Of a DNA stretch of 64,000 nucleotides, positions 28,168 to 63,612 are shown in pieces. Every line of letters starts with the position of its first letter. The stretch's first letter is position 1. The notes under the pieces are model-generated. The model saw only the letters and a program-made list of their open reading frames with translations, did not search any database and had not been told where the DNA came from. The position numbers and the translations under genes are program-made. Origin of the DNA: a virus (Duplodnaviria; Caudoviricetes); the IMG/VR virus record IMGVR_UViG_3300038679_000051, positions 96,001-160,000 of that record. The stretch is one strand, 5' to 3'.

Positions 28168-29433
28168 ATGTCTAATACTGATTTTGTGTTCAATGCCGGA
28201 AAATTGACGTTTGTAATGGATGGTGGGGCCGGAAGTTCTGGAAAAGGAAAAATTGGATCATTTATAGCAGAAAATTCGAGTAGTTGGCAATTTGCATGTC
28301 ATGCATTTATGTCAAATGCAGCGCACATAGTAATAATAGAATCTGGTAAACAATATTTATACCAATGTTTATCTTCAATGGCATATTTACATCAACGATA
28401 TGAGAAAATTTATATATGTGGTGGAGCAGTAATAGAATTGCCAGCATTATTGAAGGAGATCGAAGAAAATGGAATCCCGAAAGATAAAATTGGCATCCAT
28501 CCACTAGTGGCCATAGTCCAACAAATTGACATTGACTATGAATGTGGTTTGTGTGATTTGGACGGAAATTATTTCCAAGAACGACGAGTTTGTGAGAATC
28601 TCAAATTAGGTTCGACACTGCACGGAGTCGGTGCCGCACGAGCACGACGCATTTTGCGTAAAAACAATGCTTTATACGCAAAAGACGTACCCGAATTGCA
28701 GGAATATATATGTGATTCTCGTGCCGAAATAGTGACTAGACTAAACGGCGGCCAGTCAGGCATCTGTGAGATTGCTCAAGGATTCCAATTGGGATATTTG
28801 GAACCACGGTTCGCACCGAAGACGACGAGCCGCAATTGTACCGTCGCGGCCGCACTAGATGATTGTGGCATTCCGCCATTTTATGCTGGAAACGTAATCA
28901 TTAACTTTAGAACATATCCAATCCGCGTAAACAACAACAAATATGTAGATTCTAGAAATGGCAAGATTTTGAATCACGAGGAAATATCGCAAATGAAAAT
29001 TAAAGGCGACGATGGTTATGTCGAGACAATTAAAGGCGACAGTGGTGCTTGTTATGAAGATCAACAGGAAATCACCTGGGATAAAGTAACGAATGACAGC
29101 GGCATCAAGAACATCGACCCATCAGCCGAAATTAGAGAAACGACGTCACTCACTAAGTTGGAACGACGCGTATACAATTGGTCCAAAATCAATTTAAGAG
29201 ATGCAATCATTTATAATAAAACGAATGGTAAAACGTTTATTTCAGTTAATTTTATGAATTACGTTGACGCCACGTTAACCGGTAAACGAGGAATGGTTGT
29301 CGACGTCATGCACAATCATCCTAGAGCATCTGCGTGGTTGCAAAACAACGTCATGCAGGTAACAAATGGAACTGGTGCAATGTTGAAGTTTCTTGGTACC
29401 GGCGCAAAATCAAACGACATGGTTTGCTTCTGA
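28168..29433 (+). CDS. purZ: PurZ, N6-succino-2-amino-2'-deoxyadenylate synthase (PurA paralog)
   Basis: GSSGKG (Ser at PurA Asp13), NAAH, LGST..GVGAA, EIAQG, TTSR.CT...DCGIP, RTYPIRV (Ile at Thr271), TTSLTKLERR (Leu at Arg303), NFMNY in place of TKLD, and G.GAK..D. Confidence 0.88.
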   Translation: MSNTDFVFNAGKLTFVMDGGAGSSGKGKIGSFIAENSSSWQFACHAFMSNAAHIVIIESGKQYLYQCLSSMAYLHQRYEKIYICGGAVIELPALLKEIEENGIPKDKIGIHPLVAIVQQIDIDYECGLCDLDGNYFQERRVCENLKLGSTLHGVGAARARRILRKNNALYAKDVPELQEYICDSRAEIVTRLNGGQSGICEIAQGFQLGYLEPRFAPKTTSRNCTVAAALDDCGIPPFYAGNVIINFRTYPIRVNNNKYVDSRNGKILNHEEISQMKIKGDDGYVETIKGDSGACYEDQQEITWDKVTNDSGIKNIDPSAEIRETTSLTKLERRVYNWSKINLRDAIIYNKTNGKTFISVNFMNYVDATLTGKRGMVVDVMHNHPRASAWLQNNVMQVTNGTGAMLKFLGTGAKSNDMVCF

Positions 29434-29459: not shown

Positions 29460-29933
29460 GTGACTAAAGAATGCAATAAGTGTGGCATACAAAAACCGCT
29501 TACCGCCTTTTCTAAAAATAAGAGTGATTCAAGTGGGTATTTTCGTTGGTGCAGAGAATGTTGGAACGCAGCAAGAAGAAAACGATATGCCAAAAATCCA
29601 GAACCGTTCAAATTGGCTGGTGAAAGGTACAGAAACAAGAAGGAATTAATGCTGTCTGAATGTTTTTGGTGTCATAAACCGGCCGTGAAATTATCGGCGA
29701 TCATACCAGGAACGTCGAGATTAGTCCCGACATGCAATGGGTGTTCATATGATGCTACCATTTTCGGTAGATTGAATAATGATAAAACAATAGAAATCTT
29801 ATCATCACTAAATGAAGACGACCTTAATAAGATAAGACACATTCTTATCGGTGAGGCACTAAACGTGAAATCTGCGATAGATGCAATGAATCTCTACGAC
29901 AAACATAAAAAAGAGAGGAAAGTGACAAAATGA
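29460..29933 (+). CDS. Zinc-finger protein (endonuclease-associated type N-terminus)
   Basis: KECNKCG..KPLTAF.KNK...GY..WCREC and a second CxxC...CxxC. Confidence 0.6.
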   Translation: MTKECNKCGIQKPLTAFSKNKSDSSGYFRWCRECWNAARRKRYAKNPEPFKLAGERYRNKKELMLSECFWCHKPAVKLSAIIPGTSRLVPTCNGCSYDATIFGRLNNDKTIEILSSLNEDDLNKIRHILIGEALNVKSAIDAMNLYDKHKKERKVTK

Positions 29934-30286
29934 ATGTGATCATTTCAACTGGGATTGTGGTCGACAAACCAACATCATCAGGATTAATATATAATCGACA
30001 GACTGTGCAGAAAATTATAGATGATTTTAATAAAAATCCCAATGACGTGTGTGGTGGGTTATTAAATCGTAAATCAATTGAAAAAATTGGTAAGAAGACA
30101 CACAAGGTGAAAAGCGTCTTTCTACATAATGACGAATTAATGATGAATGCAGACATAATTGACGAATCAATTATGGACGATCTGAAAAATGGACAATTTG
30201 TCGCCAAACCAATAGTAATCAATGAATTGAACCAACCCACGAACGTAAAGGGTTTGCGCAGAATAGACATTGAGAGACGAAAATGA
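29930..30286 (+). CDS. Degenerate prohead-protease-fold protein
   Basis: DKPTSSGLIYNRQTVQKII...GGLLNR...THKVK resembles gp21 N.NGRIY...GEL.HP...SH, but the catalytic His/Ser are not evident. Confidence 0.4.
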   Translation: MNVIISTGIVVDKPTSSGLIYNRQTVQKIIDDFNKNPNDVCGGLLNRKSIEKIGKKTHKVKSVFLHNDELMMNADIIDESIMDDLKNGQFVAKPIVINELNQPTNVKGLRRIDIERRK

Positions 30287-38954: not shown

Positions 38955-39317
38955 TTATAACCAATTAGGTATTGATTTAATCCAATTTTCTGGACACCAG
39001 AAGATCGTATTCTTAACTAATTGTCCGTCATGGTATCTTAAACATACGCGATAATGAACGTGGTCTTTATTGATAATTGTCCCTGGAGAGAGATAAAATT
39101 TATGATCAGCATTATTGAGGTAAATTTTAGTACCAATCTTTAACAAGGGTATTTTGGCTTTTATCTTCTGGTTTGGCATGATCAACATCATTTCATTGAT
39201 TTTCTTAATCCAGAACATTTCGCCACATTTTTGGCAGATAAATGGAAATCCTAAATATTCATGCCATGATTCATTGCGACCCTCTTGTTCGAACTTACAT
39301 TTGGGACATCTAAACAT
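38955..39317 (-). CDS. Zinc-ribbon plus SH3-like protein
   Basis: CPKC...CQKC. Confidence 0.55.
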   Translation of the reverse strand: MFRCPKCKFEQEGRNESWHEYLGFPFICQKCGEMFWIKKINEMMLIMPNQKIKAKIPLLKIGTKIYLNNADHKFYLSPGTIINKDHVHYRVCLRYHDGQLVKNTIFWCPENWIKSIPNWL

Positions 39318-51824: not shown

Positions 51825-52101
51825 TTTTCTTTTTCCTCAATGTTTGTTTGGTAGCACAAACTTCATCATATATTTTTAGAAATGCCTTCTCTGAGGTTTT
51901 ATATGCTTTGGCAAGCGTCATATTTTTATAGACTTTAATGATGACCATACCGCCTCTGTTGTCATTGTTGACGACTTTTAGAATCTCTCTAAGATGATTT
52001 TGATCAATAGCCGTCCCAGCATAGAATGGTCCCTCTATGACAATTATTGGCTTGCCGTCTGGATTTTTCGCATCACATACTCTTGCATACATCACTATCA
52101 T
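51808..52101 (-). CDS. Hypothetical protein
   Basis: 97-aa ORF. Confidence 0.45.
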   Translation of the reverse strand: MIVMYARVCDAKNPDGKPIIVIEGPFYAGTAIDQNHLREILKVVNNDNRGGMVIIKVYKNMTLAKAYKTSEKAFLKIYDEVCATKQTLRKKKNGMVR

Positions 52102-52712
52102 TAGACACCCGCCTTAAATCCAGATGACCCAAATCCATTTGATCCCCGTTTGCTTGGTCGCAGCGCCTCTGCTATTTCACATTTAAAATTAACCGTTTTA
52201 AATAAGATTAACTGAGCGATTTTCTGTCCATGTTCGATGTCTATAGGCCATGTATTCATGTTGTGGACTTGGATCAATAATTCATTTCGATAATCATCTA
52301 TGACACCTTCTACGACCCGTAATCTGAATCGCCGTTCGGAACTCGACCGATGTATGATCATACCCCAATAACCAATTGGAAATTCCGCTACAATACCAGT
52401 ATGTAAACAGATACGTTCGTCTGGATGTATGCGCATACATCCGTGTCCCCGCGAATCTGAATCAAGAACGGTCACTAGATCAAGGCCAGCATCATCATCA
52501 TAAGCACGTTGTGGTAACCCAAATTCTTTAGCTGCTTCGCCATACCCATCATCAGTGTATTTTATTCTAATTAATTGCTTATGTTCCTGTTCCTCTTTCC
52601 ACTTGATGACGTCTAGAACCAAATTAATTTCATCTTTCGAATATTTCTCTAGACCATTCATGTTTTTCATTCTCCTATTTCTAAATTCCTTGATTGATCT
52701 TAATTTTTTCAA
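52101..52712 (-). CDS. dut: Trimeric dUTPase with N-terminal extension
   Basis: AGLDL, RSS, GVIDDYR.EL, GQKIAQL, SKRGSNGFGSSG. Confidence 0.92.
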   Translation of the reverse strand: MKKLRSIKEFRNRRMKNMNGLEKYSKDEINLVLDVIKWKEEQEHKQLIRIKYTDDGYGEAAKEFGLPQRAYDDDAGLDLVTVLDSDSRGHGCMRIHPDERICLHTGIVAEFPIGYWGMIIHRSSSERRFRLRVVEGVIDDYRNELLIQVHNMNTWPIDIEHGQKIAQLILFKTVNFKCEIAEALRPSKRGSNGFGSSGFKAGV

Positions 52713-53373
52713 TTATAGTCCTGACGACCTCACCAACTGGCATAGAGACGTCAACATATTCTGCATGTAGTATTGTTCTCGCTGGTGAACCACAAATACC
52801 ATTGACTTGCTTGCTTTTAACGAAATTCTTAAGGTAATATCCATGCGTCTCTAATATCGTAGAATATGATTTGTTGACTCGTTTTAAGTAATCATCTCCA
52901 TATCGTTCTATCCTACAGCGTTCATTTCTTGCTTTACGTCTAATTTCTAAAACTTCATCACAGCATTTGAAGACAAACAACATGTCGATCAATGGTGGAC
53001 TCTCAATACAGGCATGCATTTTTTGAATCGTCGTTAGGTCTACGCCAAGCGATTCGCCATACACAATGTCGCTTATGAAATTACAGCGATCCATTATGAT
53101 CCATTTATCAAGGTTCTTTTTGAGTATCGTCTCTACAAAAACTGAATTATCACACAAAAACAACAACCGCTCAGTGCGTGGATCTATTTGGATGTCGTCT
53201 GAGAACGTCTCCGGCTGTTTGATTAATTTGCGTATGGTCTTACCCAGTGGTGTTGATCCTGGATTATTCGCCAAGATTGCCTGCCTTGATGTGATTTGCA
53301 ACCATTCTATTATTGCAGCAGCAACGGTTGATTTGCCGGTACAATCCGGTCCTTCGAGACAAATGATTGGCAT
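52681..53373 (-). CDS. tmk: Thymidylate (dNMP) kinase
   Basis: ICLEGPDCTGKST, PG.T.LG..IR, MDR...S..VYG. Confidence 0.9.
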   Translation of the reverse strand: MPIICLEGPDCTGKSTVAAAIIEWLQITSRQAILANNPGSTPLGKTIRKLIKQPETFSDDIQIDPRTERLLFLCDNSVFVETILKKNLDKWIIMDRCNFISDIVYGESLGVDLTTIQKMHACIESPPLIDMLFVFKCCDEVLEIRRKARNERCRIERYGDDYLKRVNKSYSTILETHGYYLKNFVKSKQVNGICGSPARTILHAEYVDVSMPVGEVVRTIIEKIKINQGI

Positions 53374-53597: not shown

Positions 53598-54164
53598 CTA
53601 AATCTTAGCCGTTATCAAACGGTTTTGGTGTTGATACTTACCATCATAGATATGGTTTGGTAAATTACCCCTAACGAATACTATCTGACATATCCCTGCT
53701 TCTGCATATACTTTGATTGGTATTGGAGATGAATTATGTAATTCAATTACCAATCTGCCAACCCAACCCGGTTCAAGTAACGTACAATTAATAACCAATG
53801 CACATCTAGAATAAGTACTTTTGCCAAATACCATGCCCAATACGTCATTAGGCATAAGAAATGCTTCCCTAGTTACTCCTAGTGCAGTTCCGTTGCTCGG
53901 CACGATGAAATATGCCAGACCATCTCCATCTATTCTTGGCTCCATCTTTACCAATAGTTTATCGTCAAATTTCCTTGGGTCAATAATGCCACCCCCAACG
54001 TTTGAAAATGCAAAGAATTCGTTTTTGTCGAGCGTCGCATCATATCCAAATGATTGCAACCCCCACGACGGCACTTTACGCCCGTATATGAGATTCTGTT
54101 TAGATTCGCATGGATTAACTATCCCAAGTGAATTTATTTCGTGATCAGGTAATGGTCCGTTCAT
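53598..54164 (-). CDS. dcd: dCTP deaminase
   Basis: S.GL.S.GYD, GKSTYSRC, LEPGW.GRLVIEL.N, GICQ.VF, YDGKYQ.Q. Confidence 0.9.
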   Translation of the reverse strand: MNGPLPDHEINSLGIVNPCESKQNLIYGRKVPSWGLQSFGYDATLDKNEFFAFSNVGGGIIDPRKFDDKLLVKMEPRIDGDGLAYFIVPSNGTALGVTREAFLMPNDVLGMVFGKSTYSRCALVINCTLLEPGWVGRLVIELHNSSPIPIKVYAEAGICQIVFVRGNLPNHIYDGKYQHQNRLITAKI

Positions 54165-54959
54165 TTAATCCTCTGGAAATGGAAGAGTGCCATCATTTTT
54201 ATCTTCTCTACTTGCCATCGCCCTACGTATTGATTCTGTCTCTGAATAACCCATCGTCCTAAACGTTTTTATGTCCTGTTTTATGGAGTCATCGGATTTT
54301 GTCTGTTCGACGCTCCGTTTAATTATTTCCTTGATCTGTGTTGTGGTAACGTCGAATCTATTAACGTTGAATTTCTGACACGTATCTAATGTGATGTTAC
54401 AACTCAATTTGATTGGGTACGGTATGACTTTTCTGATGCTAGATATGATGCTATTTTGTACGTCATCATTGCATTTTGGCGACACTAAATGATGGTCCGT
54501 TCTAATATATGCAACCGGCACGCTCTTCGCAGCTTGTAATATGAGATCAATTGCTTCTTTACTACGATGCAATGCACCTAGAACGAATCTGATCTCTAAT
54601 GTCGGATTAATTCTAGTTCTGATGAATTCAGTTAGGGCTTTCATTTCATTAATTGTCTCGCCTAGATTTTTACCTTCAGTTATTAATACGTCAAATCCAT
54701 CCGATTGAAAGACGCTTCGGTCAAGATTTTTGAATTTATCCAGCGCATAATTGTTGGATCTATCAAAATCAATTGCGGTTATGATTTTATATTGTGCACG
54801 TATCTTCGACCGTTCAACGATAGCAACAGGCACCAATATGGGTGGTATGACTATTGCAGGACAACGATATTTGGCGGCGAAAGTGATGGTGTCTGCCGTT
54901 TCCATTGGGGTTGATTCATTTCCGATATTGATTTCAAATCTCGATGTCAAACCAAACAT
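54165..54959 (-). CDS. DeoC-like TIM-barrel aldolase homologue, probably atypical
   Basis: AA.Y.C.AIVIPP..V, IDF, GFDV, YIRT (Arg at the Schiff-base Lys of FIKT), PIKLS..I. Confidence 0.55.
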   Translation of the reverse strand: MFGLTSRFEINIGNESTPMETADTITFAAKYRCPAIVIPPILVPVAIVERSKIRAQYKIITAIDFDRSNNYALDKFKNLDRSVFQSDGFDVLITEGKNLGETINEMKALTEFIRTRINPTLEIRFVLGALHRSKEAIDLILQAAKSVPVAYIRTDHHLVSPKCNDDVQNSIISSIRKVIPYPIKLSCNITLDTCQKFNVNRFDVTTTQIKEIIKRSVEQTKSDDSIKQDIKTFRTMGYSETESIRRAMASREDKNDGTLPFPED

Positions 54960-55603
54960 GCATTTCTCCTTCTAGCCAATCCTGTGATTGCTTCTAACAA
55001 TTTCTCTGGATTGAGAAAAAACGTCTCATCTATTGTATCATGTTTGGCGAATTCAGCCAAAAGCCAGAAAGATGGTATTCCGTCTGGACAATCGAAGAAG
55101 ACATCTTTGCTCAGTTGCTTGGCAAGCAACAATTCCTCTATGGTGCCAACTGTAAAAATTTTTGGTAGACGACATAATATGACGTCACTAATTGTCACCA
55201 TAGTTCTACACATTTCTATGCAGGCGTTCATACCAACAAATGCATCCTTAACGTTTTTGCGTTCATTCAACATTTTCCAATATTCATCTTGTGGCAAGTA
55301 TGCTTCTTTTGGCATGCCATGTGGCTTGATCAACGGATTGAGAATCGATATTAAATTTCTGTTTGATATGTCTCTTATCGTAGATAATTTATACGTCCAC
55401 CAATCACGCCAGTCGCCGGGCTTGGCATCATGTTCAATTGGGCCGCATAGATAAACTGTGGTGGTGACCATAGACATGAAATACATTGTTAATCCGATAC
55501 GGCTCACTAAACGAAGTTGGGTAGATTGTCCTAATTGCAACGGCATTGGCTCAAAAATTGTCAGGGATGGTGTAATTAAAGTATTAAAATGTGCCGAATG
55601 CAA
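54947..55603 (-). CDS. Nucleoside 2-deoxyribosyltransferase / DNPH1-like N-glycosidase (likely start near MVTTT)
   Basis: VYLCGPI...WR, SDVIL, VGT.EE...A..L.K. Confidence 0.65.
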   Translation of the reverse strand: MHSAHFNTLITPSLTIFEPMPLQLGQSTQLRLVSRIGLTMYFMSMVTTTVYLCGPIEHDAKPGDWRDWWTYKLSTIRDISNRNLISILNPLIKPHGMPKEAYLPQDEYWKMLNERKNVKDAFVGMNACIEMCRTMVTISDVILCRLPKIFTVGTIEELLLAKQLSKDVFFDCPDGIPSFWLLAEFAKHDTIDETFFLNPEKLLEAITGLARRRNACLV

Positions 55604-62515: not shown

Positions 62516-63612
62516 TCATCGTCCTCCAACCCTTTTTCGATGAGTATTTCCTCGGCTCTCTCAGATATGCTCTCATTCAATTTTTCCAATAATTTTATGT
62601 CATATTCAGTTGGTTTGTCGACGCTAAGCCAAGTATGTAGAGCAGATTTGTGATTTCGCAAATCCACCTTTACGTTCGACATTTTTCTTTCGGTTTCAAT
62701 CTGTTCCTTAGGTCGTGCAAAGACTACTGATTTCGCACCACTCTCGATCAAGTTTTGTCGAATGGTCGTCAATTCGTTTGGCGTATATTCTCTAGATAAG
62801 ATGATTTTTATATTATTGCCTTTTGCGTTCTTGATTATGGTTCCCTCTTCCGTGTCACTCATATTAGTCAAATGTTTTGGCGGTGCCTGACTTAATAATT
62901 CAGCCGGACATGCATCATATATGTCTATGAATTCAACCTTTCGGGGATTGAAATTTACGACCAGAAATCCATGATCAACTAATCCATCGTCGAATCTAAA
63001 TGAAATTGGACTGCCTGGATACCAAATCCGATCTCCTACTTGTTGTTGGCAATGGAAGTGTCCAGTGAAAATTGATGACATTTTTACGTCATCGAAATGA
63101 ACTTTCGACCAATGTTGTAATAGGAAGCATCTGTTTAGTTCCGCGCCGCGCACTCCGATGTGCGTCAATAGGATGTCTTGTGGTTCAGCACGATTGTTGA
63201 TCTCCATCAGATGGACCAAATATTCATCTTCATTATAAATGAATGGCAATATGAAGAATTTGAAGTCGACGAAATCAATCACTGATGGTTCGTCGATCGC
63301 CGTCAACACTTTACCAAGCGGTCTCACTGAATTTATGTCCCATGAATTCTTTAAAAACATGTCATGGTTTCCTGGGAACGTGGTCCATTTTTGTCCCCAT
63401 TTTTCTTGCGTTTCGCTGAAAAAATCATATGCTTTAACTAACGTCTCAATGTTTATGCTTACCCGATCGTGAAACAAATCCCCTAGACAATAAACGTTGG
63501 TTATGTGATGATCATGTGCATATTGTCGCATAATCATCATAGCCCAAATACAATTGTCCAACTTGCTGGGGATTCCGAGATGTGGATCTGAAAAAATCAA
63601 TGCTTTATTCAT
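62512..63612 (-). CDS. sbcD: SbcD/Mre11-like nuclease (T4 gp47-like); start MNKALIFSD
   Basis: FSDPHLG, LGDLFH, GNHD, LTH, GHFH, YPGSP. Confidence 0.92.
   Translation of the reverse strand: MNKALIFSDPHLGIPSKLDNCIWAMMIMRQYAHDHHITNVYCLGDLFHDRVSINIETLVKAYDFFSETQEKWGQKWTTFPGNHDMFLKNSWDINSVRPLGKVLTAIDEPSVIDFVDFKFFILPFIYNEDEYLVHLMEINNRAEPQDILLTHIGVRGAELNRCFLLQHWSKVHFDDVKMSSIFTGHFHCQQQVGDRIWYPGSPISFRFDDGLVDHGFLVVNFNPRKVEFIDIYDACPAELLSQAPPKHLTNMSDTEEGTIIKNAKGNNIKIILSREYTPNELTTIRQNLIESGAKSVVFARPKEQIETERKMSNVKVDLRNHKSALHTWLSVDKPTEYDIKLLEKLNESISERAEEILIEKGLEDDE

Follow-up and report, generated by a model that had tools for sequence, protein, structure and literature searches.

In the literature that we searched, the characterised phages with 2-aminoadenine (Z) in place of adenine have genome sizes near 40-80 kb and replicate with PolA or PrimPol, and none of the Z phages described there has a family C polymerase. 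Their synthetase PurZ, as known from Vibrio phage phiVC8, cyanophage S-2L and Acinetobacter phage SH-Ab 15497 (6fm1, 7odx; NCBIfam model NF038379), is encoded in clusters with DatZ, MazZ or DpoZ. A different route to the exclusion of adenine, using DutZ and DmtZ, was shown biochemically for the PurZ0 phages, among them Gordonia phage Ghobes as well as Wayne, a phage of Arthrobacter; in this route, an enzyme of the nucleoside 2-deoxyribosyltransferase (NDT) superfamily stands in the place of DatZ, and the roles of its catalytic Tyr and Glu have been described (PMC12884076). NDT enzymes have also been associated with contigs containing dZ, but there they co-occurred with DatZ and were not adjacent to purZ (10.1101/2025.10.22.683976). 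Here we analysed a purZ-like gene in a window of 64,000 nucleotides, which represents positions 96001-160000 of the 320,399-bp IMG/VR record IMGVR_UViG_3300038679_000051 (Caudoviricetes). The record has direct terminal repeats and is 100% complete according to CheckV, so that the source genome is a complete jumbo phage. A preliminary description, made from the letters of the window alone, had proposed a canonical PurZ in a huge phage and noted that the characterised Z phages are much smaller. The size and the contrast in size hold. The enzyme itself belongs, as judged from its sequence, to a divergent long-form subfamily of PurZ, and an apparently undescribed pair of NDT-like and deoxyribose-5-phosphate aldolase (DERA)-like genes is the candidate for adenine exclusion.

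The PurZ-type enzyme and its subfamily

The purZ open reading frame (ORF; 28168..29433, plus strand) begins with ATG and encodes 421 amino acids. It is a real gene, and its product aligns at the N-terminus with 35 relatives. Matches were obtained to the Pfam family PF00709 (adenylosuccinate synthetase, E 4.6e-12) and, with E 5.7e-34, phrog_1211, the family holding phage PurZ, while its best sequence match in the Protein Data Bank (PDB) is PurZ of phiVC8. Residues were mapped by aligning the protein to E. coli PurA (from MG1655) and phiVC8 PurZ with MAFFT; this alignment bore out the four diagnostic substitutions relative to PurA named in the preliminary description. The catalytic base Asp13, which reportedly shows 99% conservation among PurA (PMC12884076), is replaced by Ser23, the equivalent of phiVC8 Ser14, and this Ser is invariant in 36 relatives of the jumbo-phage protein. 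Thr271 corresponds to Ile252 and Arg303 to Leu331. The latter is a known PurZ state, because the assayed enzymes of S-2L and SH-Ab 15497 both have Leu at this position, where phiVC8 has Lys. The GTP motif T330-K-L-D333 of PurA reads N361-F-M-N364 followed by Y365, i.e. the ATP-type NFxNY motif, whereas the PurZ0 markers have TMLD or SMAD there. Residues common to PurA and PurZ that serve catalysis and the binding of nucleotide and aspartate are retained (K16, N38, H41, T129, R143, Q224, T239, T301 and R305). The phiVC8, S-2L and SH-Ab enzymes share the His, Lys, Gln and Thr residues involved in catalysis. Furthermore, a metagenome association study (metaGPA preprint) ties certain residues to PurZ (10.1101/2025.10.22.683976), and of these S14, T262, W252, Y244, P233, F295 and Y298 (phiVC8 numbering) are found in the 421-aa protein.

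The AlphaFold model of the protein has a predicted local distance difference test score (pLDDT) of 90.6, and its nearest fold is phiVC8 PurZ (6fm1). Template modelling (TM) scores by target amount to 0.81-0.86 for the phiVC8/S-2L/SH-Ab type of PurZ, but S-2L PurZ, PurA of P. horikoshii and PurZ0 are nearly as near as phiVC8. Since the values lie at 0.80-0.88 for all of them, PurZ, archaeal PurA and PurZ0 are not separable by fold alone. With Ser at position 13 and the ATP-type motif, the protein is assigned by its residues to the PurZ-type enzymes and not to PurA, and we consider PurZ activity quite likely. An auxiliary PurA-like enzyme that raises the ordinary supply of AMP or dAMP for canonical DNA would agree with the Pfam match to adenylosuccinate synthetase, with the 113 bits that the protein reaches on an archaeal-type PurA model, and with the presence of a PurB gene in some relatives. 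However, the catalytic Asp13 is Ser, the GTP motif is replaced by the ATP type, the clade sits among PurZ, and a partnership with enzymes of a family destroying deoxynucleoside monophosphates, which is described below, makes little sense for AMP supply; hence this explanation appears very improbable.

The designation as canonical PurZ could not be upheld. On the PurZ model NF038379 the protein scores 131.4 bits, below the curated cut-off of 300, while phiVC8 and S-2L PurZ reach 397 and 350 bits, respectively. Its identity to these two enzymes, for which structures are solved, is 24-26%, and it is 60-80 residues longer than PurZ of phiVC8, S-2L and SH-Ab owing to an extra segment at approximately residues 256-288 and a longer C-terminus. 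The protein has many relatives. A word-indexed search returned more than 330 of 400-450 aa, many of them on contigs of 100-385 kb, and an exhaustive search among 1.8 billion cluster representatives gave 706 clusters at E <= 1e-10; in the best 150 of these clusters, Ser occupies position 13 in all full-length sequences, nearly all of which have an NFxNY-like motif. The long-form subfamily is common on phage contigs of 100-436 kb, and purZ of this type is kept in hundreds of large phages. As a side observation, many long-form homologues have 750-824 aa and match PurZ in two parts (e.g. L071:5709-8063, a JGI contig), and one of them matches Hint and LAGLIDADG_2, which makes it a PurZ gene invaded by an intein.

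The phylogenetic check suggested in the preliminary description placed the protein among PurZ. In a quick IQ-TREE analysis of 112 rows, rooted with E. coli PurA and built without archaeal PurA, the PurZ0 markers were basal, and the jumbo-phage PurZ fell inside the PurZ group, in a long-form clade of 41 rows with a Shimodaira-Hasegawa-like approximate likelihood ratio (SH-aLRT) of 99. This clade is nested in the ATP-type (NFxNY) group of phiVC8, S-2L, SH-Ab and Bacillus phage BpsS-140, but the intervening nodes reach just 84-93. Because of its profile score, identity, extra segments and tree position, we file the 421-aa protein as a member of a divergent long-form subfamily nested, on this sequence evidence, inside the ATP-type PurZ radiation. 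The closest cultured carrier is Flavobacterium phage MaF61 (PQ858689, 168 kb), whose long-form PurZ of 447 aa belongs to the same clade and is 35% identical. Unlike the source phage, MaF61 has HD_3-like, MazG-like and PurB-like genes and is without the NDT-like/DERA-like pair.

Classical Z genes and the replicase

The absence of recognisable datZ, mazZ and dpoZ from the window, as claimed before, holds and extends to the whole genome, in which HD-domain dATPase, MazG-like and polymerase genes were searched. For DatZ there was no match to phrog_7076, PF13023 or PF01966 anywhere in the genome, aside from a SpoT-type HD_4 protein, and a hidden Markov model (HMM) of seven DatZ sequences, including huge-phage sequences, gave a best E of 2.5 against all six frames. 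The HD_4 protein, the sole HD protein of the source genome (G000 62571-63140, minus strand, outside the window), was considered as DatZ and rejected because it is of the SpoT/RelA type; with 189 aa it is probably a small alarmone hydrolase. MazG/DUF550 matches (PF03819, PF04447) were likewise absent from the genome, and an HMM of three MazZ sequences, again with huge-phage sequences included, had a best E of 0.56 in the six frames. PF18909 matched neither the genome nor the controls, so the search with this family is uninformative. Neither phiVC8 DpoZ (tblastn) nor the S-2L proteins found a relative in the whole genome. In G001, the closest complete relative (341 kb, PurZ 57% identical), there are genes for MazG, PurB and HD proteins that have no counterpart in the source genome.

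The polymerases also differ from those of the described Z phages. A family B polymerase was not found in the genome, and PolA gave a single weak match in a 370-aa ORF. Two ORFs at G000 172227-174963, outside the window, together encode the replicase, a split DnaE (Pol III alpha). In comparison with phiVC8, S-2L and SH-Ab, long-form purZ occurs in genomes of 100-436 kb that replicate with DnaE, and it does not form a cluster with DatZ, MazZ or DpoZ.

The uniqueness implied for a Z-type gene in a jumbo genome is weaker than stated. IMG/VR holds phages of 118-436 kb with PurZ and a DatZ-like gene, and two of them, with 118 and 307 kb, carry a MazZ-like gene as well. In both records DatZ lies beside purZ, whereas MazZ directly adjoins them in the 118-kb record but is approximately 5 kb off in the 307-kb record. 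With PurZ, DatZ and MazZ together in these two records, classical Z clusters already exist in huge-phage contigs; our literature search found no paper describing them.

NDT-like and DERA-like genes linked to purZ

The preliminary description had considered that the mechanism of dATP exclusion may be different in this phage, and the neighbourhood of purZ in related phages now provides a concrete candidate, namely a module of an NDT-like and a DERA-like protein. The first is a protein of the NDT/DNPH1 superfamily (54947..55483, minus strand; approximately 178 aa from an internal Met, the probable start, within a full ORF of 54947-55603). Its YLxGP and TxGTxEE motifs are invariant, as are Y11, G14 and E117 among 12 sequences. 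Against PF05014, which has a cut-off of 28.8 bits, the homologue in G009 scored 30.2 bits and that in G002 27.6 bits (29 with neighbouring matches). The ESM Atlas placed the protein among clusters of viral nucleoside 2-deoxyribosyltransferases (features 0.93-0.94, structure TM 0.74-0.76). It resembles the PurZ0 phage system in that an NDT-superfamily enzyme with Tyr and Glu is found in the place of DatZ; these two catalytic residues of DmtZ line up with the NDT-like protein in a weak hhalign alignment. By analogy with DmtZ, the protein is a candidate dAMP N-glycosidase or transferase.

The second protein (54165..54959, minus strand) belongs to an unannotated family with the fold of DERA. It has no sequence match in Pfam, PHROG or the PDB, and profile searches of the PDB sequences with the alignments of the NDT-like and DERA-like proteins gave nothing significant. 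The assignment comes from its structural model (pLDDT 91.9), which has DERA for each of its 50 best matches in the PDB, from the Atlas result and from covarying Lys residues. With DeoC/DERA (6d33, 3ng3) it shares the TIM-barrel fold, an acidic residue on strand 4 and a barrel Lys. Real DERA, however, has Lys on strands 6 and 7, while the DERA-like family has one or the other: among 40 sequences, 18 have Lys on strand 6 and none on strand 7, and the remaining 22 have Arg on strand 6 and Lys on strand 7, as mapped by the strand register in the model and not by superposition. One barrel Lys is kept in every one of the 40 members. In the modelled barrel, this invariant single Lys would fit Schiff-base chemistry, yet not the canonical DERA dyad.

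Both genes are linked to purZ in many related phages. In the closest complete relative, G001, the NDT-like and DERA-like homologues are the two genes upstream of purZ, and 12 IMG/VR loci from the same subclade as the source phage have the order NDT-like, DERA-like, (Cys-rich 120-aa ORF), purZ. The DERA-like gene is also found just upstream of purZ in a separate PurZ clade of phages with 234-388 kb, in one of which (G022) it is preceded by a PF05014 NDT gene. As an independent check of the linkage, four DERA-like homologues were fetched blind from other collections. Three of the four contigs show the NDT-like gene, the DERA-like gene, a dCMP deaminase gene or a small ORF, and a PF00709 gene in this order, and the fourth has the arrangement NDT/DERA-Dcd-Tmk-Dut of the source genome, in which 25 kb separate purZ from the NDT-like/DERA-like pair and the pair is contiguous with the genes for Dcd, Tmk and Dut. 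Among 25 PurZ-bearing records of large phages, the DERA-like gene was found in 13, a DatZ/HD_3-like gene in 8 and both in none. The nine records that are at least 90% complete divide into five with DERA-like and four with DatZ-like genes, without any record having both or neither; they are not nine independent observations, since they represent roughly four lineages. The DERA-like and DatZ-like modules behave as alternatives.

Three genes of deoxynucleotide metabolism follow the pair on the minus strand. A dCTP deaminase-like protein of 188 aa (53598..54164; PF22769 E 6e-21, phrog_1663 E 7e-41) is succeeded by a thymidylate kinase-like protein of 230 aa (52681..53373; PF02223 E 2.7e-19) and by a dUTPase-family protein of 203 aa that is extended by approximately 60 aa at its N-terminus (52101..52712; PF00692 E 3.8e-19). 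The last of these is 40% identical to the DutZ domain of the PurZ0 phage DrRobert and 30% to E. coli Dut; these identities do not settle its specificity, a dATP/dGTP pyrophosphatase being a possible function. A second dUTPase-family match was rejected as dUTPase, because it is an ordinary dCTP deaminase-like protein. As in the DmtZ/DutZ system, a Dut-family enzyme is thus encoded in the same genome as the synthetase, but the Dut gene is neither fused nor adjacent to the NDT-like gene in the relatives. Moreover, the synthetase of the jumbo phage is an ATP-type PurZ and not PurZ0, and the constant partner of the NDT-like gene is the DERA-like gene, which is unreported for any Z phage in the literature searched.

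Further ORFs of the window could be related to these loci. An endonuclease VII/HNH-like ORF (29460..29933, plus strand; phrog_1035 E 3.9e-12) separates purZ from the gene that usually follows it downstream. This ORF does not occur at the corresponding position in relatives and is probably a mobile insertion or homing element. The usual neighbour is a conserved 118-aa ORF (29930..30286, plus strand), with tblastn matches directly after purZ in L009, L014 and L028. It was dropped as a member of the nucleotide pathway because it has a prohead-protease-like fold (TM 0.76-0.77 to Peptidase_S77 clusters, Atlas structure) and is probably outside the pathway. The Cys-rich, Zn-ribbon-like ORF of 120 aa is found at 38955..39317 (minus strand); its homologues in L015, L017, L029, L039 and L052 (tblastn) have CxxC...CxxC motifs and in relatives lie between the DERA-like gene and purZ. 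Regarding the relatives themselves, some have a dCMP deaminase gene between the DERA-like gene and purZ (L070:5650-6132; a Logan contig), a placement that ties the remodelling of pyrimidine and purine pools into one operon. In G001, a 384-aa thymidylate-synthase-like protein (L014:6196-7350, minus strand; partial PF00303 match, E 7.5e-13) is encoded immediately upstream of the NDT/DERA/PurZ string. This protein may modify pyrimidines, and no counterpart was found in the source genome. G002 (IMGVR_UViG_3300037067_027684, 246,684 bp), a close relative with the same string, is classified as a provirus by IMG/VR, which would be unusual for a jumbo phage and may be a clue to the host.

Adenine exclusion and modification of the phage DNA

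The explanation we favour, and regard as somewhat probable in its entirety, combines an active long-form PurZ with adenine exclusion by the NDT/DERA module. The divergent PurZ would condense dGMP and aspartate, using ATP, to N6-succino-2-amino-dAMP, which host PurB and host kinases would carry on to the Z deoxynucleoside triphosphate (dZTP), and the DnaE-type replicase of the phage would insert dZTP opposite T. Adenine would be excluded by the breakdown of dAMP and not by DatZ/MazZ, in the manner of DmtZ in PurZ0 phages. The NDT-like enzyme may split dAMP into adenine and deoxyribose-5-phosphate, or transfer deoxyribose-5-phosphate from dAMP, and the DERA-like enzyme may clear the deoxyribose-5-phosphate that is released. 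The dAMP could originate from the breakdown of host DNA or, via the Dut-family enzyme, from dATP; this neighbouring enzyme may provide both dAMP and dGMP from the triphosphates. Taken separately, a substantial content of Z in the phage DNA has a slightly better than even chance in our estimate, and for the NDT/DERA module as the substitute of DatZ the chances are about balanced. Observed are the residues and the fold of PurZ, its linkage to the partner genes, the folds of their products and a distribution that is mutually exclusive with DatZ; all substrate specificities and the occurrence of Z in the virion DNA are inferences.

Several observations weigh against this explanation. Besides the PurZ profile score below the cut-off, Phe12 of phiVC8, said to help to hold the 2-amino group, is Ala21 in the 421-aa protein and represents the sole metaGPA residue that is changed. 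PurB was not found in the search of the whole genome. The NDT-like protein is distant from DmtZ, since hhalign against the NDT-Dut fusion of DrRobert gave a probability of 11% (E 0.0027), and genes of the NDT family are also present in phages without Z. The DERA-like protein of the source genome has Arg153 on strand 6, at the site of the Schiff-base Lys of DERA, and Lys184 on strand 7. Finally, Mom genes imply an adenine-directed modification, which would be redundant without adenine unless the enzymes act on Z, and A-containing restriction sites are not generally shielded, because the genome lacks CTCGAG and AGGCCT.

The last two points deserve closer consideration. The source genome has five Mom-domain (PF25680) matches outside the window (G000 239655-240224, 248328-248627, 256926-257420, 288672-289247 and 292148-292687), two of them with in-frame stops, and G001 has eight. 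Mom genes were detected in four of the five near-complete PurZ records without DatZ and in none of the DatZ-bearing ones. Regarding 6-mer palindromes in the whole genome, the mean ratio of observed to expected copies is 0.18 for those of G and C only and 0.86 for those containing A/T. GGCGCC, CCGCGG, CTCGAG and AGGCCT have zero copies, with 12-21 each expected, and GGGCCC has one. These deficits are strong restriction-site avoidance. The avoidance of GC-only palindromes fits a protection of A-containing sites, which is suggestive, not decisive.

The Mom-like enzymes may act on remaining adenine, which favours a partial substitution, or on Z. Accordingly, PurZ might be active while the substitution is partial or conditional, so that Z and A coexist because dATP is poorly removed, and Mom-like enzymes modify A or Z as a second protection. 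The absence of DatZ and MazZ from the genome, the distribution of the Mom genes and the avoidance of several A-containing palindromes all agree with such a state. It is, however, at variance with the tight linkage of the NDT/DERA module to purZ and its mutual exclusion with DatZ, which suggest a dedicated function in adenine removal, and we regard partial substitution as rather unlikely. In a more far-reaching version of the favoured explanation, the NDT-like glycosidase and a DERA-like family with a migrating catalytic lysine would replace DatZ in DnaE giant phages, and Mom-like enzymes would further modify Z or residual A to a doubly modified purine; this we consider unlikely.

It could also be speculated that the NDT-like, DERA-like and PurZ-like proteins together salvage bases or make another purine nucleotide that is so far undescribed, e.g. 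by a reverse DERA reaction whose deoxyribose-5-phosphate is joined to a base, and that the product is not plain dZ. The distinct pocket residue Ala21, the insert and the C-terminal extension of the subfamily would be consistent with another product, DmtZ is known to transfer deoxyribose-5-phosphate (PMC12884076), and the unannotated DERA-like family with its displaced Lys co-occurs with many Mom-like genes. Nevertheless, the protein retains every residue by which the PurZ reaction is known to be defined, and the conserved gene string holds no extra modifying enzyme, which makes this possibility quite improbable.

If the favoured explanation is true, Z-DNA would extend to phages of 250-440 kb with DnaE replicases. 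The accessory functions would then form an interchangeable module, with DatZ/MazZ in some lineages and the NDT-like and DERA-like proteins in others, and the latter would represent a third solution to adenine exclusion beside DatZ/MazZ and the DutZ/DmtZ of PurZ0 phages. Furthermore, a DERA-fold family lacking Pfam annotation would gain a function-linked context. Many metagenomic contigs would be flagged as originating from DNA that may be refractory to restriction enzymes and to some sequencing chemistries, and with MaF61 a cultured relative is available in which part of the question can be tested directly.

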